Part shown: piece by piece, positions 2,038 through 27,978 of the stretch
How the letters are laid out: every line of letters starts with the position of its first letter
Position numbering within the stretch: the stretch's first letter is position 1
Assembly (NCBI RefSeq): GCF_963921235.1
Contig: NC_086108.1
Coordinates: 86,306,001-86,370,000, forward strand
Reading direction: 5' to 3'
From: Mobula hypostoma
Taxonomy: Eukaryota
Length of the DNA: 64,000 nt
Notes under the pieces: generated by a model
The model's database searches: none
The model's input: only the letters and a program-made list of their open reading frames with translations
Told to the model about the DNA's origin: nothing
Position numbers and translations under genes: made by a program

Positions 2038-2227
2038 TGTAATATATGGATCTATTTCTTTTAGAGCAATGACTCCTCTTAACACTATGTATGGATCTGT
2101 TATCTGCCCATGCGCATTGTGCTCGGTCTCTCTCTCTATCTTGCTAGAATATGAATACACCAGTTAAAGCCATCTCCTGTGTGCATGCTTTTATTTAATT
2201 GATATGTAGTTGTGCACAGACACAACA
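2038..2227 (+). repeat. 5' LTR of the Gypsy element
   Basis: Direct repeat of 5870-6073; starts TG, ends CA; followed by the PBS. Confidence 0.9.
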
Positions 2228-2409
2228 AATTGGTAACGAGTATGAACCTGAATGTCAGAGAATATCGCCACGTGCACCGACAGTGATGGGATGAAACAGC
2301 AAGAGTTAAACAGTACGGAAGGTCACAGACGCTAACAACGGGACATGTGAGTAACGCTGCATAGTGAAAGATAGGTAACCAGCAAAGTTAAAATGAAAAT
2401 AACGTGGCA

Positions 2410-3050
2410 ATGGCTTCAGTCAGGAAAGTACACAAATTTGATAACACTAATAAAGGCTGGGAGTTGTATATCAAGAGGGTGCAACTGTATTGTAATGCAA
2501 ACAATGTGGAGGAGCAAAAGAAAGCCCCTACACTTCTTACCATAATGGGTCCTTGGATGTACGTTTTCTTACATTGGTAACCCCTGAAAAGCCAGCAAAC
2601 AAGACATTCGACAAAATTGTTACAATTTTACCAAATTTCTTGAACCCTAACCTGCTGGCAATAACCAAGAGATATAGATTTTACAAAAGAATCCAGTCTA
2701 AGGATGAAAGCATTTCTGAATATATTGCAGAACTGCGCAGACTTTTCCAGTACTGTGACTTCAGAGATAGACTTTCTGATGTATTAAGGGACAGGCTTGT
2801 ATGTGACATGCATAGTCAAAGCACACAGAAGAGACTATTGTCAGAAAGAGACCTAATCTTAGAATGGGCATTGACCATTGCAATATCGTTAGGGACTGCA
2901 GCAAAGGATACAACAGAACTACAGAAAAAGAGTTTAGAATGGGAAATCCACAAAATATCCGTGAATGGTACAAAAATCCAAAAAGATTGATTTGGCAAAT
3001 CCACCCATGATGCAAATGACTGTTGGTTTAAAGAAAAAGTTTGCAGAAAG
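2410..3050 (+). pseudogene. gag: Gypsy gag remnant
   Basis: MASVRKVHKFD...WELYIKRVQLY, then RFYKRIQSKDESISEYIAELRRL...LRDRLVC (ORF 2553-2990); frameshifted. Confidence 0.85.
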
Positions 3051-5550
3051 TGAATCTGGATACAGGGTCAGCTTTGTCTATAATCCCAGAGGCTGACTAC
3101 AACAGACTGTTTTCTAACCTATTGTTAGAGAAGACCTCAGTGATGCTAAAGACCTACAGAGATTGAAAAGTGTCTCCCAAAGGCAAACTGAAAGTGAATG
3201 TGACATATGGAGGCCAAATTTAGCAGTTAGAGCTTTATATGTTGAAAAGTGGAGTGCCAGCACTTTTTGGATGCAAATGGTTGAGAAAAATCCAACAAGA
3301 CTGGCACATAATGAAAGATCTCAATGTGTCATCAACAGGCAACTGCAGCCCAAATGGTAGCACTAATCAGAGACGGTCACAATTGCTTAATGCAAATAAG
3401 AAGGTGCTTGAGAAGGACATTGGTAAACTCAAAGGCATGAAAGCCAGAATTAAACTGAATTAAGCAGCAATACCAAGATTCCATAAAGTGTGTCCAGTGC
3501 CTTATGCACTACGTCCCATAGTGGATTCTGAGCTTCAGAGCTTGAAGGCGTCTGGAACTCTCTCCAAGGTTGAATGGAGCAATTGGGCCATGTCCATTAT
3601 CCCGGTGATCAAGAAAGGGAAGGCTGGAGCCATTTGTATATGTAGGGATTTCAAAGTGTGCATTAATCTGGTGCTGTGTTCTATGCAGTATGATCTGCCA
3701 CAAATAGAAGACACCTTTGCATCTTTGGCAGGCAGGGAGAGATTTTCAAAGATTGACTTGTCACAAGCCTATTTGCAAATGGGAGATTGGGGAGCCCAGC
3801 AGAAAGTTCCCCATCAACACTCACAATATAAATTTTTAAGAATGAAATCTCATATCGTGGCTATGTCATTGACAAGCATGGCTTACGTAAGTCATAAGAG
3901 AAGATTGAAGCACGTATACAGACACCCAAAACGGAAAACGTGTCACAACTCAGGTCATACTTGGGCCTTGTAAACTATCAAGATCAGTTTCTCCCAAACG
4001 TTGCTACAATGCTGCATCCATTGAATACACTGTTACAGACAGGAGCAAAGTGGGACTGGTCAGAAGGATGTGAAAGAGCATTCAAGGGAACAAAGAGACT
4101 AACAACATCTGCACAACCACGCACAGATCAACCGAGAGGGCATTCATCTAGTATGGGGAATAAAGAAATTCCACCACCACCTCTATGGACAAAAGTTTAT
4201 GCTAGTCACCAGCCCCTTGTGTCCATTTTCAATCCCAGGAAAGGATTTCCGCTGATGACTGCTACCCGCTTACAATGTTGGGCACTGTTTCTAGGAGCTC
4301 ACTCTTATGACATACAGTTTAAGGGCACCAAACAAGGGCACAGCAACACTGATGGCTTGCCACGTCTTCCACTACTAGCAACTAAAACAGAAAAGTCTTC
4401 AAACTGTGATCCAGTAGAAGTGTTCCACACAGCATTCATGGACCAGTTGCTGGTAGCAAATTCTGAAATACAAAGAGAAACAAGGAATGATCCAGCATTG
4501 TCAAAAGTCTATGACATCACCATGCAAGGATGGCCAGCTCATGGTAATCCTGTGTTCCAAGAGTTCTCAGTGTGACCAGACCAACTGTCTGTGTATCAAA
4601 GAATGCTAATGTGTTGATCTAATGCTGTGTTTCCAACTAACTGCGCACCAGAATGTTAGAGAATCTGCATGAAGGATACTTGCGTACAGACAAGATGAAG
4701 CGTTTCGCCCTGCAGTTCATGTGGTGGCCAGGAATAGATAAAAAGATTAAAGACTTGGCCAAAAGCTGTTCGGGATGCCAAGAAGTTCAAAATGCACCCC
4801 CACAGGTACTGTTCCAACCATGGACGTGCTCGTTTTCACCATGGCAAAGAGTCCATATTGACTTTGCTGGGCCATTCATGGACTCCATATTTCTGATTGC
4901 TGTGGATGCTCATTCAAAGTGGCCAGAAGTTATACCAATGAAGTCAACCACCTCAGCTAAGTGACTCTGCTCTGATGACTAACTTAGCCAGAAATAGCCT
5001 ACCAGAAGAAATTGTGAGTGACAACAGACCACAATACTGGTCAGAGGAATTCCAACTGTTCATGAGCGAAAATGTCATCATGCATTTTAAGTCAGCTCCT
5101 CACCAGCCAGCAATGAATGGGTTAGTTGGTTTATCCAAACTTTCAAAAAGTCCAATAAAGTGATGGACAAGGAGGACATTTCTCTACAGCACAAGGTGGA
5201 CAACTTCCTTTTGGTATATCGACATTCTGTTCATGCAATAACAACTCAAACACCTTCAATACTGCCCATGAATAGGAATCTGAGATCTCACATAGACCTC
5301 CTGAAACCAGATCTACAGAGGGAAGTACAGAATAAACAGTTCAGCCAGTTGCCAAATGAAGCAGCAAGGAGCTTCGAGAATGGACAGGGAGTCCTAGTGT
5401 GTGATTACTGAGAAGATAAGTGGGCACCCAGTAGGAGAGCTACAAGAACTGGACCTGTGATGTGCACAGTTGATGCTGGAGACCAGACACGGAGATGTCA
5501 TGTGGACCAGATAGTGGAGCTCAATCAAAGAACAGACGTCAGTCGACTGT
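3050..5550 (+). pseudogene. pol: Gypsy pol remnant (RT with core deleted, RNase H, integrase)
   Basis: PVPYALRP...WAMSIIPVIKK...FSKIDLSQAYLQ; QLRSYLGLVNY; ATRLQCWALFL; LHEGY...WWPGID...CSGCQ; PWQRVHIDFAGP...VDAHSKWPEV; IVSDN. Confidence 0.9.
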
Positions 5551-5869
5551 ATCCAACAAGATGGGTACATTATAGTCACTGGACTTGCCTCTCAACGATG
5601 ACTACTTCACTGACAGCAGCGTGGCACCAGCAACCGAGAATGTTGTCTTAGACAAGACACTTACTAAACCTAATGCCACTCCACAGGTCCAGAGCGCTAT
5701 CCTGAAAGAAGCAGAGTGCCACCCAAAAGACTGGATCTTTAGAACTATGAAGTTAGTTATGGACCGTTATTATGAAAGCATGTTTATTTGGAATATGGTT
5801 TGTGCAAAGGAAATTGAATGTTTTGAACCTATTCAGTTTTATGTTACATTCATCTAAAGGGGGAGGAAG

Positions 5870-6073
5870 TGTAATGTATGGATCTATTTCTTTTAGAACA
5901 ATGACTCCCCTCAGCACTACATATTAATCTGTTGTCTACACATGTGCATTGTGCTCTCTCCCTCTCCTTCTCTCTCTCTCTTTCTCTTGCTCCAATGTGA
6001 ATACACGAGTTGAAGCCATCTCCTGTGTGCGTGCTTTTATTTAATTGATATATAGTTGTGCACAGACACAGCA
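5870..6073 (+). repeat. 3' LTR of the Gypsy element
   Basis: Direct repeat of 2038-2227, preceded by the polypurine tract. Confidence 0.9.
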
Positions 6074-6185
6074 AGGACAATTCATCCTTAATCATAATGA
6101 ATGGCTGAGTAGGTTTGGTAGGGCATATGCCCCATTCTTTCACCCAAGTCATATAAACAGAATAAGAGAACTATTCTTCTTGTAC

Positions 6186-6713
6186 TGTAACATAAAGGGT
6201 TAACTTTACTGCCAATCTAAAGTTGCTTCTACGTACCGGTCACTGATTGGTCCATTCAAAGGATGAGTCAGCTCTCTTCCATTGGCTGGCTTTCACACTA
6301 TTGCACTGGCTTCCAGCTTTGAGTACCCCAAAGGTATATGAATAGTGCATGAAAGAGCCTTGTTCTCTTTTTGACTAAGGGCTCTCCTTCAGACTGGGTC
6401 ACAAACAGGGCTGAAGGACCTCTAGGAAAATGTGCTGCAGAAAGGAGGCACACTTGGGTAAGTACCTGCTTGTTGAATGTTTAGTGCTGTAGTTGTGTAA
6501 TTTGTGGGAATAACAAAGTACCTGGTGGAGTTAGAAGTGTTTTTGAAAGTTTAGTGTCATAGTTTTGTAAATTAGTGGGCTTGGATAAGTCTTCTTTGAC
6601 TGAGATGTCTGAGTGTTTCACTGCTTGTCTGTAGATAAATAGTTAATATGCTTAATCAAAATCAGTGCCTTCTGTTCCACTTACTGAATCTGCCAATCTG
6701 TTTCTGTGTAACA
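6186..6713 (+). repeat. ERV 5' LTR
   Basis: Starts TGTAAC; colinear with 14881-15391 through shared blocks such as cttcagactgggtca, ctgcagaaaggagg, tgttgaatgtttagtg, tgtcatagttttgtaa, ctgagtgtttcactg and aatcagtgccttct. Confidence 0.85.
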
Positions 6714-6779
6714 TTACATATTGATAGTGACAGCCCGTCAGAGGATTCTGAACCAACCCCCACTATTTGGTTTTAACAA

Positions 6780-7050
6780 CAGCTCTCCACTTGAAAGTGA
6801 TGGTGCTACCTTTAATAGAACTGGCAGTAGGGGATACTGTAAATGCAGCCATTCAGTTGCTAGAAGAGTTGGAGTACATGGCGGAAGGTACATGTAGCCT
6901 GGAAATTGGATAGGCGGACAGAGAGTGAGGGATCCCACGTGACCTGTAAGGAGAGATTTTTTGGGCTGCTTAGGGCAGGGCTGCTGAAGTAGCGGATCAG
7001 TGGGGTTCCCACGCCCTCTCTCTATGCAATGTAGAGGAAACACTGAGTGG
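6780..7050 (+). pseudogene. gag: ERV gag C-terminal remnant
   Basis: DTVNAAIQLLEELE and VTCKERFFGLLRAGLLK*RISGVPTPSLYAM*RK resemble the recalled ERV-L Gag C-terminal motif (T..dLw..Li.hGv...eIdg.pT..Ll.ly). Confidence 0.55.
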
Positions 7051-7598
7051 AAGTCGGGCAAAGTAACTGTTCAGAGAGGGGACTTATCTTCCAAGCCCTC
7101 CTGAATAAAGGTTTGTTTGATCCCTTGCCAGATTCCTCCACCCGCGATCCAGGTTCCCTATATCCTTCACTGAACGTCCTACGAGGGGCACTGGCGGGCC
7201 TCTAGTGGCTGCAGGTGGTGCCCTGCCACCCCACTCACATGGGGGTGAGGTCAGGGCCCTTGGCTGATATGCTCAGCCATCCTTTCCCAGCCGGGACACC
7301 CAGGGCCTTTGGTACGCATTGTGAAGTATTGGGGGAAAGGGTATTTGCAGCGATAGATGACGCTGATGCCGAGCAAGTAACTCCAACAGTTGGTGGGGTC
7401 CCCGGGCTACAATACAGGGATTTAGAGGGTTTCCTTCTTCCTGCTTGAGGGGTTACCCTGCAGTTGCTCGAGACCAGGACATTCAAGCTCCCCAATACCA
7501 AGCAGTACCGGATCCTGAGAGATGCCAAAAAGACTGGAGAGGCTATAGATGCCCTGTTGTGGGAGGGAATCATTTGCCCTGCCACCTTCCCCTATAAC

Positions 7599-8020
7599 TA
7601 TCACCAGGTGCAGATATGGCCCAAGTGTGGAGTGAGAGACACTGAAGCAGGGCGATAGTTCACAGACTTTAATGCGAATAATGTTAAAGGGAAAAGAGAA
7701 CATAAACACTAGGCCAAAACAGGGCTGTTAACTAAAGCTCTCAAGTGGAAAATGAAGCCTACACTGCGGCTAAAAAGAACAACTAAGGATAAAACGAATA
7801 CCGCTAGTCTTCAGAGTCAGTTGACTCAACAGTCCAATTTCTCAGGCAAGGTGAAATGCAAACAGACAGCAAAGCGTTGCTGTGTCCAAGTCTCGGCAAG
7901 CACTACAATGAAAAGTATAGAGTTAAATACTATCACAATGAAATAATAATTAGCTGACACGTGCATATTCACAAGCTCAATTGCCGTATCTACTGCAATG
8001 CTGAATCCGTGGTTGTGGCA
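7599..8020 (-). repeat. Chromovirus 3' LTR
   Basis: Close direct repeat of 12183-12580; adjacent to the PPT. Confidence 0.93.
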
Positions 8021-8059
8021 GGGACCCCCTCTCTAGGCGCAGCCCCTGAGGCACCACAG

Positions 8060-11000
8060 ACCTGTCCCGGATCAGCATCTTGTCCAAGATGTCCTTCGCT
8101 GGGATCCAAGTATGTTCTTCTGGGCCATACCCTTCCCAGTCCACAAGGTACTGTACCTTACCACGTACCCGGTGAGATGCCAGGAGGCGCCACACCGTAT
8201 AGACAAGGGAACCATCTACCAGGCGGGGAGGAGGGGAGTTGGGGTGACTGGGGCCAAGGGAGAGGTAGTAACTGGCTTGAGCTGGAAAACATGGAATACT
8301 GGGTGGATCTTCAGTGATGCTGGTAGACGCAATCTATAGGACACCTTGTTGACAGCCTTTTCCACTACAAATGGTCCCACATAGCGCGATGCCAATTTCC
8401 AGCTCTCGACTTTCAGGGGAAGATCCATTGATGCCAACCAGACCTCCTCTCCTGGCTTGAATGGCCTTAGCTGTTAATGGAGCCAATCAGCCTGCCGGGA
8501 ATGTTGTTTCTGGGCACACAGCAGAGAAGCCCTGGCTCGTCTCCAGGTGTGCTTGTAGCGCCTGGATCAGCTGTTCAGCAGCAGAAGCTCCTATGTCAAC
8601 CTCCTGATCAGGGAAGAGCGGGGGCTAGAATCCCTTCTGGTATTCAGAGGGAGGATAACTGGAGGTTATTGTGGGCGATCTCTGCTCAAACCAATTGGGA
8701 GCTCCAGGATGTGGGGTTGGAAGAGGCAAGACAGTACAGGGTTGTCTCCAACTCCTTGTTCACTCTCTCAGCATGGCCATTAGATTAGGGGTGGAACCCA
8801 GATGAGAGGCTGGCCATGGCTCCTACAAGACAGCAGAAAGCCTTCCAAAAGCGGGAAATGAACTGTGGTCCACGATCAGACACTATGTTTGAGGAAACCC
8901 ATGGAGCCTGAACGCATGCTGAACCATGAGTGTGACAGTCTCACGAGCCGATGGGAGCTTGGAGAGGGCAATGAAGAGGACAGTCTTGGAAAATCGATCC
9001 ACAATGACCAAAATGGTTGTGTTTCCATTAGATGGGGGCAGACCAGTGATGAAATCTACTGAGGAGTGGTGGGGCACAGGCAGTGGACATAACAGACCCA
9101 CAGAATGCTGGCGTGATGTCTTCTTCCGAGCGCGGGTGGGATAGGCAGATACAAAGTTGTGGACATCCTGAGACATAATTGGCCATCAAAATTGTCTCTT
9201 TATAAACTCCTGAGTCCGTTGAATTCCCAGATGTCCAGCCAGACAGGAGAAATGACCCCATTCCAACACTTTGGAATGCACCGCAGCAGGGACAAACAGC
9301 CGGTTGGGAAGTCCTTCATCTGGGACTAGATCTGATTGTTGGGCGGCCTTCACCTCTGCCCCTATTCCCCAGATCACTGGAGCAGCGATACACGAGCGAG
9401 GGAGAATGGGCTCTGGGTCAGCATTGTCCTCAGATCTGTCGAACTGCCGGGAGAGAGCATCGGCCTTTGTATTTTTGCTGCCGGGATGATAAGTGAGGAT
9501 GAAATTGAACTGTGTGAAGAAGAAAGCCCACTGGGCTTGATGAGAGTTGAGTCTCTTAGCTTCCTGGATATAGGAGAGGTTCTTGTGATCTGACCAGACC
9601 AAGAATGGATGCTCTGCCGCCTCCAGCCAGTGTCGCCATTCCTCCAGGGGTTCCTTGACAGCCAGAAGCTCCCGGCTCCCAACATCGTAATTCCTCTTAG
9701 CTGGAGTCAAGCAACGGGAAAGAAAGACACAAGGGTGCAGCCAGCTATCCTCCGATGAGCGCTGAGAGAGGACAGCTGCAATGCCTACATCGGATGCATG
9801 CACCTCGACAATGAATGGCTGAGATGGGTCTGGGTGTTGCAGCAGCGGGGCGGTGGTGAAAGGTCGCTTTAGCTCGGAAAATGCTAGGTCGGCATCATCC
9901 ATCCAATGGAATCCTGCCGAGGTCTTCTTGGTGAGTGCATTAATTGGAGCCGCGATAGAGCCGAAATTCCGGATGAAATGGCGATAAAAATTCGGAAATC
10001 CCATGAAGCGCCATATCTGTTTGACTGTAGACAGTTTGGGCCACTCTGAAACTGCCTGAATTTTACTAGGGTCCATTTGAACACTGGATGGGGTAAGTAT
10101 ATAGTCCAAAAATGACACCAGGTCTTTATGAAATTCACATTTTGCAGGCATGGTTTACAGGTTATTTTCAAGAAGCCATCCGTACTCTCCAGACATGCTG
10201 AATGTGCTCCTGATGAGTCTAAATACACAAACACAAACTGGCTCAACATGTCCCTGAGCACATTGTTAATCAAGGCCTGGAATACAGATCAGAAGCATCA
10301 CCAGATATTCATAGTGGCCATTAGAGGCGTTGAAAGCTGTTTCCCACTCATCCTTTCTTCTTAAGCGAATCAGATTGTAAGCATTGTGCAGATCAATTTT
10401 GGAAAATATGGTTGCTCCCTGGAGATGTTCAAACACAGACACCAGCAAGGGAAGAGGGTAGCAGTTGTTCAGGGACCGATAATCAATGCTGGGATGGAGC
10501 TTGCCATCTTTCTTGCTCACAAAAGAAGGAGCCTGCTCCTGCACGAGGTTGACTGATGGATATACCCCATGGCCAGTGCCTCCTTGACGTATTCCTCCAC
10601 GACCACTGTTTCAGGACGAAAGATGGAAAAGGGGTGGCCCCGGGGAGGACTAGTGCCAGGTAGGAGGTCTATTGCACAGTCATATGGCTAATGTGGGGGC
10701 AGGATGTTGGCCTTTCTTTTACTGAAAACCTCAGGGAGATCCGCATATTCAGCCAGAATCTCAAACAAGTCCACATCCTTAGCTGACACGAGGGGATTCA
10801 TGGAACGGAACTTGAGCTGGACCCAGACAGGTAGACAGGCATGCCAGTCCCCACTCTTGGATTACCGTCAGAGACCAATCAATCCGTGGGTTATATCGGG
10901 ATAACCAGTGGAGACCAAGTACCAGTGGCAGATCAGGTGAATTAACCAGATGGAAAGATATTTCTTCATGATGGTTGCCTTCAAACACCATTTAGAGCGG

Positions 11001-11300
11001 TTGGGTGGAAAGGTGGATCAGGCTGGTTCCCAGAGGTCAACCATCCAGTGCCTTGACGTTGATCCTGAGTTTCCTTTTAATTCCTGAGTTGGATCTCCCC
11101 ACCTTTGAGTGAGAGAGATGTCCATAAGATTCCCAGTTGCATTAGAGTCGATAAACACTTTAAGTTCATGGGTCTGAGACCTCCACGACAAGGAAGCTGC
11201 AAGCATTACAGAATTAGAGGAAGCTGACTGAAGAGAGAACCGACTCGTCAGGATTCCACTCCCTGCTGACGGGTGTTCTCTTTTACTGGACGCTTGGAAC
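8060..11300 (-). pseudogene. pol: Chromovirus pol remnant with C-terminal chromodomain
   Basis: [36 protein letters not shown]...FSKIDL, VFVYLD; RH FIVEVHASDVG...RELLAVK...[17 protein letters not shown]...[18 protein letters not shown]...IHPVFHV; chromodomain VQYLVDWEGYGPEEHTWIP. Confidence 0.93.
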
Positions 11301-12161
11301 ATGCCGCCCAGAAGTGTCTTGGATCACCACAATAGAGGCACGAACCTGTTCTCTGGCACCGCGCTCATTCCTCCTGAGACAGGCGCATGCGCCCCACTTG
11401 CATAGGCTCCTCTGTGGGCTGGGAGTGAGGGGGAGAGGGCGAGGAGAGACGGTGATCAGGCAGTGCGTAGGAAGTTTGAAACATTCTTTCCCTGTGCCAC
11501 TCAGTTACCCAGCTGTCAACTCGAACACCCAGATTAATCAGGACATCCAGACTATCCTGCTCGTCTCAGACAACGATCTCATGCTGGACCCCTGCGTTCA
11601 GTACATGCTGGAAGGCAGTGATGAGAGATCTCTCATTCCCTCCCGTCTGTACCGCAAGGGTACAGAATTTAACTGCATAGGCTCTCACTATTCCTCTGCC
11701 TTAGCGCGGGTCCAAGAGTCAGTGAGCAGCCTCCTGACCCTGTACTGGAAGATCACAAACCCTCCTTAACTCCACCATGAAATGTCGGAATGACTTGGAT
11801 GCAGGATATCCTTGCTCCCATGAGGCGTTGAGCAAGCTGAGTTGAGGTCCGTCAAGAAAATTGACCATGTAAGCCAATTTTCGCGCATCATCACCAAAAC
11901 GACCAGGCTGGGCTTGGAATGTCAGCTTGCATTGGGTAATAAAATTCTTACAACCATCAGGATCACCAGAATATCTGCCTGAGTCCGATTGTCTGTGGTG
12001 AGCTGTTGAACTGTTGCAGCTAGGGCTTGTTGGCACGAGATTATCTGCCTCATTACCTCCGTTACTTCACTGAGAACAGATTCCATTGCCTGTAGCTTGT
12101 CTCCTACCTGACCAAAGAATCTCACAGCCAAGGTCAGCTGCTCTCTCTCTGCTGGGTCCAT
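11270..12161 (-). pseudogene. gag: Chromovirus gag remnant with CCHC zinc knuckle
   Basis: MDPAEREQ...; RYSGDPDGCKNFITQCKLTFQAQPGRF (Sushi/PEG10-like capsid); CLYCGDPRHFWAAC near 11300-11342. Confidence 0.88.
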
Positions 12162-12182
12162 CTTTGTGTGGTTGAGACTTGC

Positions 12183-12580
12183 TGTCACTAGGTTCGGATA
12201 TGGCCCAAGTGCAGAGTGAGAGACATTGAAGCAGGTCGGTAGTTCACAGACTTTAATGTGAATAATGTTAAAGGGAAAAGAAAACAATAAATGCTAGGCC
12301 AAAACAGGGCTGTTAACTAAAACTCTCAAATGGAAAACGATGCCTACACTACGGCTGAAAAGAACAACTGAAAATAAAACGAATACCACTAGTCTTCAGA
12401 GTCAGTTGACTCAACGGATCAATTTCTCAGGCAAGGCAGAAAACAGGCAGTGAAGCGTTGCTGTGTCCAAGTCTCAACAAGCACTACAACAATCACAATG
12501 AAATGATAATGAGCTGACACATGCATATTCACAAGCGCAATTGCTGTATCTACTGCAATGCCGAATCCGTGGTTGTGACA
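12183..12580 (-). repeat. Chromovirus 5' LTR
   Basis: TGTCAC...GTGACA termini; 24 bp shorter than the 3' LTR. Confidence 0.93.
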
Positions 12581-14299
12581 ATAACAGCTTAGTATGGCTT
12601 GTGCGGAAGAACGATGAGACATGGCATATGATGGTTGACTGTTGACAGTTGAACAAAGATACACCGCTTTTCACAGCGGCTGTCCTGGATGTAAGACCAT
12701 AAGATCATAAGATATAAGACCAGATACAGGCAAGTGGTTACCTTCCTGAGGGAGTAGGGTTGTTCTATCAACACTGACAAGATACAAGGCCCCAATTAAA
12801 ATGTTCTATTCCTGGGCAGAAAGTGGCATTCTAGGCAGCAGGAGAAACATGAAAGGGCCGAGTAGGAGATCTTGAATGCTGCAGACCCCTACTCCAGGGA
12901 GGAGATGTTGTGCTTTGTTAGGGCTCCTTTGGTACTGGGGCCAACATATCCCCCACCTGACTATCATATTACTCCCCCTATACTGGGACTTCCACAAAAA
13001 GATCGCTTTCCAGTGGGGCCCCAAACAGCAAGCGGCCAAGCAGGCAGGGGAACAAGCTGTCCCATTATCCCCTAAACAGAGTGGAGTACCCTTTGAGCTG
13101 CAAGTTTCAGCTGCCCCTGGAGTGGCTGAGTGGAACCTGTGACAGGTGTTGAGGGGTGTCACATCCCCTTGGAGTTTTGGACAAAGGCTTTACCCGAGAC
13201 AGTGACCCAATGCAACCCCTTCGAGAGGCAGTTGTTGGCTTGCTGTTGGGCCCTCCTGGCCACTGAGCACCACACAGCCTCTGAGCCAGTCATGCTGTGA
13301 CTGCATCTCCCTATCATACAGTGGATTAAGTCAGACAATGCAACTCCAAAGAAGGCCATTTCCAATGGTCTTCAATTGTTGAATAGAAATGGTGTATTAC
13401 AGGTAGGGCAGTGTAAGGTCCTAATGAGGTGAGCTGTCTTCATGAACAGGTTTTGTCCCTGTCCGACAATGACCTCTGCATCCATGACAAAGTCCCTACA
13501 ATTAATCCCTCACCTGTACAATGAGGTAAGCCATATGACAATTTGACCCTTGAGGAGAAACAACAAGTCTTGTTCACCGATGGCTCCAGCCTTTGGCAGG
13601 GCTGCAAGCAGTGGTGGAAGGCTATTGCTATCCACCCTATGATGAGTAAAGTCGTTACACAGGAGTAGGTTTGTGGGGTGGGGGGGGGGGGTGGAGGTGC
13701 TGTCAACTGGCTCCGTTGATGGCTGTGACCATGCCCTCTGAGAGGCCACTGGACCTGTTAGTATTAGAGTCCATATTGACTCCTGGGCAGTGACCAGTGG
13801 CATGGTGGTCTGGATGCTCAGTGACACGAGCAAACCTAGGAGGTGCAGGAGCGACCTCTTTCCCTGTTTGGAACAAAGCTAGAAGGAAGCACACTGGCAG
13901 AAGTTTATGGTCCACCATGTAGATGCTCACACCACTCGGGACACTGAGGAGCCCACACATAATGCTGCAGCAGACAGAGCGGCACAGGTCAGGATGGTCA
14001 CCGCGTGTTCCAAGGTCACCTGGCAGTCTAGGCACTCCAGAAGATTGGACACTTAGGGGTGGATGGGACAAAGAAATGGATGGAGACTTGACGGGTGGTG
14101 ATAATATACGACAAAGCCTAAACATTGGTCATAAGCTGTCCGACCTGCCAACATGTGAAGCCCAGGGGATGGCTGGAAGTTTAGTCGGGACACATCCTGA
14201 GGGTATGAGAGCTGGATATGCGGATCCTGGGCCTACTGCTGCTATCCAGGGTCTATGATGCTGTATGTACACCACCTCATTGCCCTGGATGAGCACCAC

Positions 14300-14811
14300 A
14301 CCCATGATGGCCAGCATAGTATGAGGTTTATCACAGAGGGAGAAGAGTTTTGGACAATAGCCTTTCCCCAGTATGGTATGGCCAGACCGCCCCAGGAACT
14401 GAATCGTATGACTTCTATGACAAACACTGACAAGCAAGATAGCCATTGCTCTCAAACACGTGGATTATGCGATCTTCTGAATATTGGCCAAAATAATGGC
14501 TATTTGAATGGTTGCCTTGCAGAAGCAGATGGCCTAAAGCTAACTGCTTGCAGAGAAAGGAAGTACTTGTGTTGCTATTGGTCAAGAATGCTTCACCTAC
14601 GTTCCTAATGAGTCAGGGAACATTAATAACCTGGTTGATTGTATCTGACAGCCAGTGGGTGTGCTTAAGTAAGAGGGGGACCATTTACATAGCTATTACA
14701 CTCTGGGGGAAGCTGGTAGCTTTTTGGGGCACTAAGAGGTTGGTGGACTATCGTAGTACACTGGTAGTGACTATTGGGATTATAGTACTGGTTCTTGCTA
14801 TTTTTATGTGA
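14300..14811 (+). pseudogene. env: ERV env transmembrane subunit remnant
   Basis: Degenerate furin site HSMR, then FITEGEEFWTIAFPQYGMA; at 14508 MVALQKQMA*S*LLAEKGSTCVAIGQECFTYVPNE (ISD plus CX6CC-like); anchor TLVVTIGIIVLVLAIFM; spread over three frames. Confidence 0.85.
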
Positions 14812-14880
14812 GGCATTTGCAGAGGTTACACTAGCCTGAAGGTCGAATTGTCGCGAGGTTGGGTCTTTCAAAGGGTGCAA

Positions 14881-15391
14881 TCTAACGTGGTATTAACATA
14901 CCTGCCTGTTCAAAGTCACTTATGCCATGCCAGTCGTTGATTAGCCCATGTGAAGGATGTGGCAGCTCTCTCCAATTGGCTGGGTTTCACACCAGTGCAC
15001 GGGCTTCCAGTTTCGGGCACCCCAGGTGTATACAAATAACGCATGCAAGGTGCTCTGGGGCTTCCCTTCAGACTGGGTCATGGCCAAGGCTAAAGGACCA
15101 CTGGGGAAGTGTTCTGCAGAAAGGAGGGCCCACACGCGCACTTGGATAAGTATCTGTTGAATGTTTAGTGTTGTCGCTGTGTAACTTGGGGAAACTTAAT
15201 AAAGTACCTGTTTGAGTTAGATGTGTTATTTAATGTTTATTGTCATAGTTTTGTAAGTTAGGGAGCTTGGATAAATACTTGTCTGACTTAGATACTTGGC
15301 TGAGTGTTTCACTGTTTGTAAATAAATAGTTAACATGCTTACTCACAATCAGTGCCTTCTAACCCACCTCCTGAACCTGCTCCACGTAATA
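14881..15391 (+). repeat. ERV 3' LTR
   Basis: Colinear with 6186-6713; followed by the TSD TGTAC. Confidence 0.85.
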
Positions 15392-15884
15392 TGTACTCAC
15401 ATCCAAACTAGGAATCTTTTTATTAAAAGGAAATGCCAATCTTTAACTCTATTTAATAAAGAGGGTTAAAATGGAATTAATAGAGATCTTTTAATATTAA
15501 TTCTTATTTCAGATTCATTGTCACTATCCTGTCAAAATGCACCAATTTTTGTAACATTGAATAGTTCATGTAACAGAAATACTCAATTATATTTTTATAC
15601 AGCTATGAGTTGTGAAACATTTAAAATCTTTACTAATAAGTTTCTCCTGTTGAGAATTAAATATTCCCTAAAATCATAATATTTTAGCTTCAGGCTGCTG
15701 ATACTTCAATTATAATTCTATTGTCGCCTCGTGTTAAATCTAATTTAAAATATTCTCAGGTTGCAAATAGACATTGAAATAAACCTATCTGAGGCTCTCA
15801 GATACATTAACAAAGTAGCCTTGAGAGCCAAAATCATTTTAAATACAATACCTAATGTTAACTATCCAGAGATGCCTGTCTTCC

Positions 15885-16580
15885 TGTATGTGGACTTTAG
15901 GAAGGGGAAGTCAGCAGTAAACACATCAGCCCTCATTGAATGGTGGAAAGGGTGAGCAGCTTCAAGTTCCTGGGCATCAGCATCTTAAAGGAACCTGTGC
16001 TGGGCCAATATATAGTAATGCAATCGTGTAAAAGGGACTCCAGTGGCCCTATCCCATTAAGAGTTTCAGGGGATTCTGTATACCTCCAAAGACAATTACA
16101 AGTTTCTATAGATGTACTGTGGAAAACATTTTGACTGGCTGCATCACAGCCTGGCACAGAGGCTCCAATACACAGGATTAGGAGGGTGAAGAGGGTTGAA
16201 GATTCAAACGAGACTGAAGAGGATTATAAATTCAGCCAACTCTGCCACTGGCACGGTGCTCCCCACAATCAAAGACATCTTCAAGCGATGGTGCCTCAAA
16301 AAGATGGCGTTCATCGCTGTGGACCCTCACCATTAGGACATAACCTCTTCTCATAACTTCAGTGAGGAGGTAGAGAAACTTGAAGATTCACGCACTTCAG
16401 GTTGTCCCACTCCAGCATCAGATTTCTGAATGATTCACGAACCCAGGAACCACCCCATTATACTCTATTTCTGCACCATTTATTTATTTTGTAATTTTAT
16501 GTACTGCACTGTACCATTGCCACAAAACAAGAAATTTCATATAACCCAAGACAGTGATAATAACGTTGATTCTGATTCTT
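15885..16580 (+). mobile_element. Rex1/Babar-type LINE 3' fragment
   Basis: VDFRKGK...VERVSSFKFLGI; ends in a GATTCT-repeat tail. Confidence 0.75.
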
Positions 16581-16634
16581 CTGCAAGCTATTCACAGATT
16601 GAATGTCTCCTAACAAGTGAGCTATATATCTTCC

Positions 16635-16720
16635 TAGAGATGCTGTCTGGCCTGCTGCGTTCACCAGCAACTTTGATGTGTGTTGCTTGAATTTCCAGCA
16701 TCTGCAGAATTCCTGTTGTT
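16635..16720 (+). repeat. Penelope-like terminal repeat fragment
   Basis: gatgctgtctggcctgctgcgttcaccagcaactttgatgtgtgttgctt is near-identical to 57342-57391. Confidence 0.55.
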
Positions 16721-25925: not shown

Positions 25926-27978
25926 GAAAGAAATTTTCAAAGGGAAGAAGGACGCTACCGTGGCTGACAAGTGAATTCAGAGTCAAAATAAAAGCAAAAG
26001 AGAGTGCATACAAGGAAGCCAGGGCTAGTGGGAAGATAGAGGATTGGGGAGCTTTTAAAAACTTGCAGAAGGAAACTGAGAAAGTCAGTCGGAAGGAAAA
26101 GATGAATTATGAGAGGAAGCTGGTGACTAATATCAAAGAAGATACTGAAAGCTTTCTTAAGTATATAGAGGGTAAAAGAGAATCGAGGGTATATAGGACC
26201 AATACTAAATGACGCTGGAGATATTGTAATGAAAGATGCAGAGGTGGCAGAGGAAATGAATACATATTCTGCATCAGTCTTCACAGTGGAATACGTCTGC
26301 AGTGAACTGGATATTCAAGAGTGTCAGGGAAGTGATATTTGTGCAGAGAAAATTACGACTGAGAAGGTGCTCAGGAAGCTTAATGGTCTGAGGTTGGATA
26401 AATCTCCCGAACCTGACGGAATGCACCTCGGGTTCTGAAGAAAGTAGCTGGAGAGATTGCAGAGGCATTAACAATGATCTTTCAAGAATCAATAGATTCT
26501 GGCATTGTACCGGATGACTGGAAAATTGCAAATGTTAATCCACTATTTAAGAAGGGTAGGAGGCAGCAGAAAGGAAATTATAAACCTGTTAGCCTGACAT
26601 CAGTGGTTGGGAAGTTGTTGGAATCGATTGTTAGGGATGAGATTACGGCATACCTGGAGACACATGACAAGATAGGCCAAAGCCAGTATTGTTTCCTGAA
26701 AAGAAGATCCTGCCTGACAAACCTACTGAAATTCTTTGAGGAAATTACAAGCAGGGTGGACCAAGGGGATGCAGTAGATGTGGTGTACTTGGATTTTCAG
26801 AAGGCCTTTGACAAGGTGCCACACATGAGGCTGCTTAGCAAGATAAGAGCCCACGGAATTACAGGGAAGTTACTAGTGTGGGTGTAGCATTGACTGATTG
26901 GCAGAAAACAGTGGGAATAAAGGGATCCTATTCTGGCTGGCTGCCAGTTACCAGTTGAGTTCTGCAGGGGTCGGTGTTGGGACCGTTACTTTTTACAATG
27001 AATGTTAATGATTTAGACTATGGTATTAATGGATTTGTGGCTAAATTTGCCAATGCTACAAAGATAGATGGAGGAGCAGGTAGTGTTGAGGAAACAGAGA
27101 CCCTGCAGAGAGACCTAAATAGTTTAGGGGAATGGGCAAAGAAGTGGCAAATGAAATACAATGTTAGAAAATGTATGGTCATGCACTTTGGTGGAAGAAA
27201 TAAGCAGGCAGACTATTATTAAGATGAGAAGAGAATTCAAAATGCAGAGATGCAAAGAGACTTGGGAGTCCTTGTGCAAGATACCCTAAAGGTTAACCTG
27301 CAGGTTGAGTCAGTTGTGAAGAAGGAAAATGTAATGTTGGCATTCATTTCTAGAGGTATATAATATAAGAGCCAGAATGTAATGTTGAGGCTCTATAAGG
27401 CACTCATGAGACCACACTTGGAGTATTGTGTGCAGTTTTGGGCTCCTTATTTTAGAAAGGATACACTGACATTGGAGAGGGTTCAGAGAAGATTCATGAG
27501 AATGATTCCAGGAATGAGAGGGTTACCATATGAGGAACGTCTGGCAGCTCTTGGGCTGTATTCCCTGGAGTTCAGGAGAATGAGGGGGGATCTCATAGAA
27601 ACATTCCAAACGTTAAAAGGCCTGAACAGATTAGATATGGCAAAGTTATTTCCCATGGTAGGGGATTCTAGGACAAGAGGGCATGACTTCAGGATTGAAG
27701 GACGTCCTTTTAGAACTGAGATGTGGAGAAATTACTTTAGTCAGAGGGTGATAAATCTGTGGAATTTGTTGCCATGAGCGGCTGTGGAGGCCAAGTCATT
27801 TGGTGTATTTAAGGCAGAGATAGATAGGATCTTGATTAGCCTGAGCATCAAAGGGTATGGGATGAAAGCAGGGGAGTGGGGATGACTGGATGAAGTGAAA
27901 CAGCCCATGATTGAATGACGGAGCAGACTCGATGGGCCGAATAGCCTACTTCTGCTTCTAAATCTTATGGTCTTATGG
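25926..27978 (+). mobile_element. 5'-truncated CR1 inserted in the minus-strand CR1
   Basis: ORFs 26474-26887, 26974-27222 and 27382-27777 carry CR1 RT motifs; tail TCTTATGGTCTTATGG; flanked by a TCTAATT duplication. Confidence 0.9.

Follow-up and report, generated by a model that had tools for sequence, protein, structure and literature searches.

Near the left end of the 64,000-nucleotide stretch analyzed here (contig NC_086108.1, positions 86,306,001 to 86,370,000 of the forward strand; hereafter the window) lies a decayed endogenous retrovirus (ERV), bounded by a pair of long terminal repeats (LTRs) and a 5-bp target-site duplication (TSD), and split by a nested Ty3/Gypsy chromovirus (Table 1). 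With the nested element removed, the internal region between the LTRs comes to 3,175 nt, in which remnants of gag, protease, reverse transcriptase (RT)/connection/RNase H, integrase zinc finger, and env follow one another in that order. Sequence comparisons support the assignment of pol to class III, related to ERV-L/S (within clade Huo), and its joining to the transmembrane subunit (TM) of a gamma-type env. An env-bearing class III element had been proposed in a first-pass annotation made from the letters of the sequence, and profile scores, two trees, topology tests, and the TM match uphold it.

Table 1. Features of the ERV and of the chromovirus nested in it (window coordinates)
Feature	Position	Strand	Remarks
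Left TSD, TGTAC	6181..6185	.	
5' LTR	6186..6718	+	Termini TGTAA...TTACA
Gag C-terminal remnant	6924..7061	+	Matches stingray Gag residues 458-507; weak, E 8e-5 against 3 frames; 5' two-thirds of gag missing
Start-of-protease remnant	7291..7377	+	Stingray Gag-Pol match; weak, E 5e-4 against 3 frames; remaining protease not recognizable
RT N-terminal piece, cut by nested element	7494..7598	+	
Nested Ty3/Gypsy chromovirus	7599..12580	-	LTRs 7599-8020 and 12183-12580; TSD ATAAC at 7594-7598 and 12581-12585
RT N-terminal piece, continuation 3' of nested element	12586..12693	+	
CATAAGA-type tandem, ~40 nt	12694..12733	.	In place of deleted RT catalytic core
RT thumb and connection domain	12734..13540	+	Frameshifts near 12878, 13152, 13350
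RNase H remnant	13541..14011	+	Pfam RNase_H E 0.03; frameshifted around G-run at 13670-13750
Integrase HHCC zinc-finger remnant	14014..14166	+	Pfam Integrase_H2C2 E 0.0035; integrase core and anything 3' of it deleted
End of surface subunit (SU), cleavage site, fusion peptide (probable)	14201..14416	+	By eye, from position and motifs only
Env TM ectodomain remnant	14406..14696	+	Heptad, immunosuppressive domain (ISD), CX6C without third Cys; syncytin-1 E 3.8e-6
Membrane anchor of env (predicted)	14761..14817	+	Kyte-Doolittle 19-mer mean 2.93
Polypurine tract (PPT)-like sequence	14869..14880	+	
3' LTR	14881..15391	+	First base 14876 or 14881 (5-nt uncertainty); decayed at its end
Right TSD, TGTAC	15392..15396	.	

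The class of pol was examined by profile searches and phylogeny. When 1.84 billion proteins were scanned in full with HMMER, the query being one reading frame with its stops written as X, 61 matches were returned at E ≤ 0.001; ten of these were looked up, and the nine that were named all came from vertebrates (caecilian, white shark, seahorse, koala, Komodo dragon, wall lizard, toadfish, bichir, and spadefoot). A second-step search with the best match yielded 154 proteins, the 120 listed including a red-stingray family and a mouse cluster with a dUTPase after the integrase (P0100), which we take to be MuERV-L. Outgroups were drawn from IMG/VR by their primer-binding site (PBS) motifs, and their virus names, including that of the snakehead-like reference L058, are presumed from PBS and length. 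Single-sequence profiles run on the unjoined frames gave 288 bits for the stingray family and 179 for mouse ERV-L, with 16.5 for one gamma sequence and 0 for foamy, snakehead-like, and nested Gypsy sequences. Across the eight pol pieces, identity was 43%–44% to stingray, 37% to mouse ERV-L, and 16%–23% to 18 outgroup rows (17.8% to L058).

The window was placed inside the ERV-L-like clade both in a quick tree of 53 rows (support 100) and in a careful mixture tree of 29 rows with 473 columns filled by the window (100/100), and was sister to the red-stingray family in each (94 and 95/91, respectively). The 34 ERV-L-like rows of the quick tree were picked from the matches, with most swallow and stork gene models left out. 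Approximately unbiased (AU) tests rejected union with gamma (p 3e-65), foamy (p 0.002), snakehead-like (p 0.010), and Gypsy sequences (p 0.017, with one Gypsy row only), so that the comparison proposed at first pass against these four groups leaves pol with the ERV-L-like sequences. A connection domain separate from RT and RNase H, which Ty3/Gypsy elements lack, is present, and pol does not group with Gypsy. Within the ERV-L-like clade, the tests did not reject a basal place (p 0.33), a sister relationship to mouse ERV-L (0.21), or one to white shark plus killifish (0.058), though the best trees nest the window within the clade. With a stingray family as the nearest relative, the suspected cartilaginous-fish host is likely; the tails of long interspersed nuclear elements (LINEs) in the window are presumably also ray-like.

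What remains of pol is fragmentary, with 12 stops in the eight pieces. All six pol motifs quoted in the first-pass annotation were located, distributed among three reading frames, and the retroviral order it described holds for RT, connection, RNase H, and the integrase zinc finger, but the RT catalytic core is absent and integrase ends after the zinc finger. Residues 379–482 of the reference protein P0001, including the RT catalytic motifs, have no counterpart in the window; the YIDD-type core region is deleted in this copy, as is the region 3' of integrase where an ERV-L dUTPase would sit. Altogether, four separate large deletions took out the catalytic core of RT and the core of integrase, along with the greater part of gag, of protease, and of the env SU. 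Tandems like the CATAAGA-type patch at the RT-core gap also occur at 27963, 39306, 47493, and 63188, where they form the ends of LINE-type repeats. The patch itself is possibly a LINE-linked deletion or repair patch and, because such a LINE-tail-like sequence occupies the junction, the RT core was likely lost after integration.

The env remnant spans about 14201–14826 and, as had been claimed, lies 5' of the purine tract. In a search of 177,635 PDB sequences, the TM ectodomain piece matched syncytin-1, other gamma-type TMs, and, weakly, filovirus GP2, and gamma-type TMs also topped its matches among 640 comparison targets. An ERV-L-like pol is thus found beside a gamma-type TM with an ISD and a CX6CC motif, the latter decayed and without its third cysteine. 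The putative SU end and fusion peptide had no significant match in PDB, Pfam, or the comparison proteins. No intact sequon was seen in the decayed heptad, and the SU N-terminus is deleted.

The two LTRs are 79.6% identical (Kimura two-parameter distance, K2P, 0.241 over 496 aligned columns) and, as first described, are flanked by TGTAC on both sides. At random window positions, a 5-mer was shared by chance in 0.13% of 200,000 draws, or 1.4% if a slip of ±5 nt was allowed. The TGT...ACA ends are present in the 5' LTR and decayed in the 3' LTR. No PBS assignable to a tRNA was seen by eye in the sequence after the 5' LTR, and tRNA and Rfam scans of the window gave no match. The purine tract resembles the PPT of ERV-L. 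Absolute dating was abandoned, as the LTR divergence converts to ~550 My at 2.2e-10 (the rate assumed by Han 2015) versus ~55 My at a mammalian rate; relative dating was kept.

Several points weigh against reading the locus as one env-bearing class III provirus. Formal classification uses the RT core, which this copy lacks; its placement therefore depends on the connection domain, RNase H, and short flanking pieces, and the window branch is long (1.26). The ERV-L-like panel was collected by similarity to the window, with mouse ERV-L entering via the second-step search, and the panel was without epsilon, HERV-S, or XtERV-S references. Looking for epsilon sequences by PBS motif brought up a single metagenomic locus, which was unrelated. 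Pfam gave no env family match. Word-indexed protein searches returned no candidate for the env piece and 16 for the connection piece, none at E ≤ 0.001, both pieces being too decayed for the index. Furthermore, block indels of 9–15 nt separate the two LTRs on top of 20% substitutions, and the end of the 3' LTR is decayed, without a clear match to the last five bases of the 5' LTR. Since that match is unclear, the right TGTAC could partly be the LTR terminus, and the 3' boundary of the ERV is less certain than was implied at first pass.

Further copies and the insertion itself were sought in other sequencing runs. Part of 12586–15400 was present in 11 of the 17 listed runs (four of organism A, the probable source sample; four of B; and one each of C, D, and E), the share present being 0.35–0.37 in B, 0.13 in C, 0.09 in D, and 0.06 in E. 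Contigs of one run each for A, B, C, and D were compared with the window. Those of B, at 97%–99% identity, span the flank/5' LTR (6013–6639) and 3' LTR/flank (15324–15961) junctions as well as both junctions of the nested element (6617–7642 and 12522–14520); because all four are bridged, the ERV and chromovirus insertions both predate the A–B split. The contigs of C and D are co-linear with the window at ~91%–95% across the gag-pol and integrase-env junctions, and they stop 28–29 nt inside the chromovirus LTR, just below the 31-nt bar, with no listed piece bridging the host flank. They are likely orthologous to the window copy, judging from this alignment, and if so, the LTR divergence (0.24) would be about three to four times the A–C/D distance. 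In all four runs, the env segment was matched by several contigs per run (10–15 at 14525 and 6–8 at 14328, versus 3–4 at 13192 in pol); because further contigs match it throughout, we regard env as a feature of the family. Bins over the LTR and env were 3–7 times deeper than those over gag and pol, in summed contig depth, which is not copy number.

Taken together, we consider it highly probable that the locus holds an ERV-L/ERV-S-group provirus, deleted and likely inert, in which a gamma-type env remnant is retained; its source was likely an infectious retrovirus that reached the germ line in an ancestor of rays. An env-bearing retrovirus of this group would have infected the germ line, its integrase presumably making the 5-bp duplication at insertion, and the lineage would have spread by infection, an ability of the ancestor to which env points. 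Stops and frameshifts would then have accumulated in the copy, and sequence would have been lost from gag, protease, SU, and the cores of RT and integrase; the chromovirus would have inserted later. No working viral protein would be made, and the remaining role, if any, would be LTR-derived regulation. The deletions may have preceded or followed integration, with loss after integration being likely for the RT core.

On this timing, it is possible, and we suggest it tentatively, that the copy was already internally deleted at integration, a non-autonomous derivative for which an intact family member had served as helper, copying it in trans. The short internal region left by four separate large deletions, the deeper LTR and env bins (again, not copy number), the deleted multicopy derivatives described for XtERV-S, and the C and D contigs that cross the gag-pol and integrase-env junctions would all fit such a derivative. 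However, the identity of those contigs and their ends inside the nested LTR indicate that they are probably orthologues, not paralogues, and the LINE-tail-like patch fits a genomic event. A pre-deleted copy would in any case alter the history of the copy, not that of the family.

It is unlikely that two halves from different family members were joined by recombination, in which case the LTR divergence would overstate age and env might not belong to pol. The LTR differences, the ambiguous 3' LTR end, and the position of the integrase-env junction at a deletion point are in keeping with such a join, but the matching 5-bp duplication supports a single insertion, both LTRs belong to one family, and the integrase-env junction is co-linear in B, C, and D contigs. 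Hardly credible is a snakehead-retrovirus-like, foamy-like, gamma/epsilon, or Ty3/Gypsy identity, for although the env TM is gamma-type, the best solved-structure match of the connection piece is murine leukemia virus RT (E 0.005, in a search in which no ERV-L structure came up for comparison), and elephant shark has env-bearing snakehead-like and epsilon-like ERVs (Han 2015, PMC4422223, as far as its accessible text goes), identity is far higher to the ERV-L-like rows than to the outgroups, and the AU tests reject the gamma, foamy, snakehead-like, and Gypsy placements, epsilon being grouped with gamma in class I in PMC6001957.

The ~5-kb minus-strand chromovirus splits the ERV as had been recognized, and matches RT_RNaseH, Integrase_H2C2, Chromo, and SH3_Tf2-1 in Pfam. 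Its LTRs are 89.4% identical (K2P 0.116), which fits the nesting order because they are less diverged than those of the host ERV. A second Gypsy-type LTR retrotransposon, on the plus strand at 2038–6074 (LTRs 2038–2228 and 5870–6074, 81% identical; gag and pol frames decayed), stops ~110 nt 5' of the ERV 5' LTR. On the other side, a short repeat at 16629–16720 has extreme contig depth (bin mean 1.8 million, one run) and presumably resembles the CR1/HER1-type tails of rays. The remainder (16800–64000) is dense with decayed LINE copies, whose frames distinguish two or more kinds that we take to be CR1-like and Rex1-like, and no host gene was seen there among open reading frames ≥150 aa.

The ERV is a further example of the known env-bearing ERV-L/S architecture, like HERV-S and XtERV-S, and not a new kind. 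We found no paper stating such a pairing of env with an ERV-L-like element in an elasmobranch in the open literature, subscription journals, Repbase, Dfam, and bioRxiv supplements lying outside that search. The architecture is thereby extended to a likely cartilaginous fish, adding one more data point to the question of an ancestral env in the ERV-L/S clade versus repeated gains. The weight first given to the copy for the origin of ERV-L/S is not supported, as the architecture was already published in frogs and mammals and ERV-L-related elements in whale shark and killifish, the RT core needed for standard placement is missing, and the best trees nest the window in the clade, though a basal place was not rejected. 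The copy is indeed a poor witness, its SU, PBS, dUTPase site, and RT and integrase cores being lost or unreadable, and better-kept relatives are already in public stingray, shark, and amphibian annotations. The nested shared insertion could act as a marker among related species.

It is doubtful, though conceivable, that rays have an old env-bearing ERV-L/S lineage of their own (the window family plus the stingray family) that branched before tetrapod ERV-L and ERV-S, with env ancestral to the clade and later lost from the ERV-L of mammals and birds. If true, this would run counter to the existing proposal of separate env gains in frogs and in HERV-S; in its accessible text, the anuran preprint argues for several gains in the clade (bioRxiv 2024.07.05.601823). 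A contig search for relatives of P0001 among viral contigs found none, and the leads that stingray Gag brought up in the Atlas all stayed below 0.9.

Among known systems, the closest is the red stingray (Hemitrygon akajei) Gag-Pol of the XP_072891825.1 cluster (P0105, P0246–P0248), which is the top scorer on the window, its sister in both trees, and the match of its gag and protease remnants. At 43%–44% identity, it is therefore a different family, represented by long open gene models without a dUTPase by Pfam. Thirteen ERV-L-like Gag and Gag-Pol gene models of this species (P0105, P0246–P0257; some >1,500 aa) cluster at 90% identity, which suggests a recent spread in the red stingray. Several are named "Friend virus susceptibility protein 1-like," so the short gag remnant of the window, most of gag being deleted, weakly matches a Gag annotated as Fv1-like. 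ERV-L-related database proteins also occur in white shark, seahorse, bichir, and lungfish. Sequences from white shark (P0002, P0071, P0109), seahorse (P0003), and killifish (P0097) form a second ERV-L-like lineage with short branches (98/96 in the 29-row tree), separate from the stingray lineage; its mixture of shark and teleosts hints at host switching.

In a broader survey of six chondrichthyan genomes, Blanco-Melo 2024 assigned 2,843 RT loci, most of those found, to clade III, which there includes foamy-like and snakehead-like elements (PMC11089739, accessible part). Xu et al. 2018 (PMC6001957, from the portions available) put class III ERVs in clade Huo and find them in all major vertebrate lineages; going by the label order and support values of S2 Fig, HERVL, Murine_ERVL, and HERV-S have fish neighbors, Rh_ty_ERV3 of whale shark and No_fu_ERV1 of killifish. 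Rh_ty_ERV3 is a shark consensus of ~5.7 kb whose first 400 letters, the part compared by eye, include the same C-terminal Gag stretch as the window; it may or may not include env, which bears on novelty.

MuERV-L and HERV-L share with the window the pol clade (37% identity to mouse P0100) and the 5-bp TSD, but they are without env, and because an env TM remnant is present, the window element is not ERV-L in the strict sense. As far as the accessible parts of the sources go, the ERV-S-type elements come nearer in architecture, with an ERV-L-like gag-pol joined to a gamma-type TM (ISD, CX6CC): XtERV-S of frogs, which has 5-bp TSDs and old interrupted and deleted relatives (PMC8278194); AnERV6 and AnERV8 of other anurans (bioRxiv 2024.07.05.601823); and ERV-S.1-Dbi of the black rhinoceros, alongside HERV-S, which has all three genes (bioRxiv 2024.03.17.585361). 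ERV-S.1-Dbi likewise has a 5-bp TSD, as in the window. Unlike the window element, these have tetrapod hosts and some are intact and recent; the likeness is one of published description, their sequences standing outside our panel, and old, deleted, and interrupted copies are known among them too.

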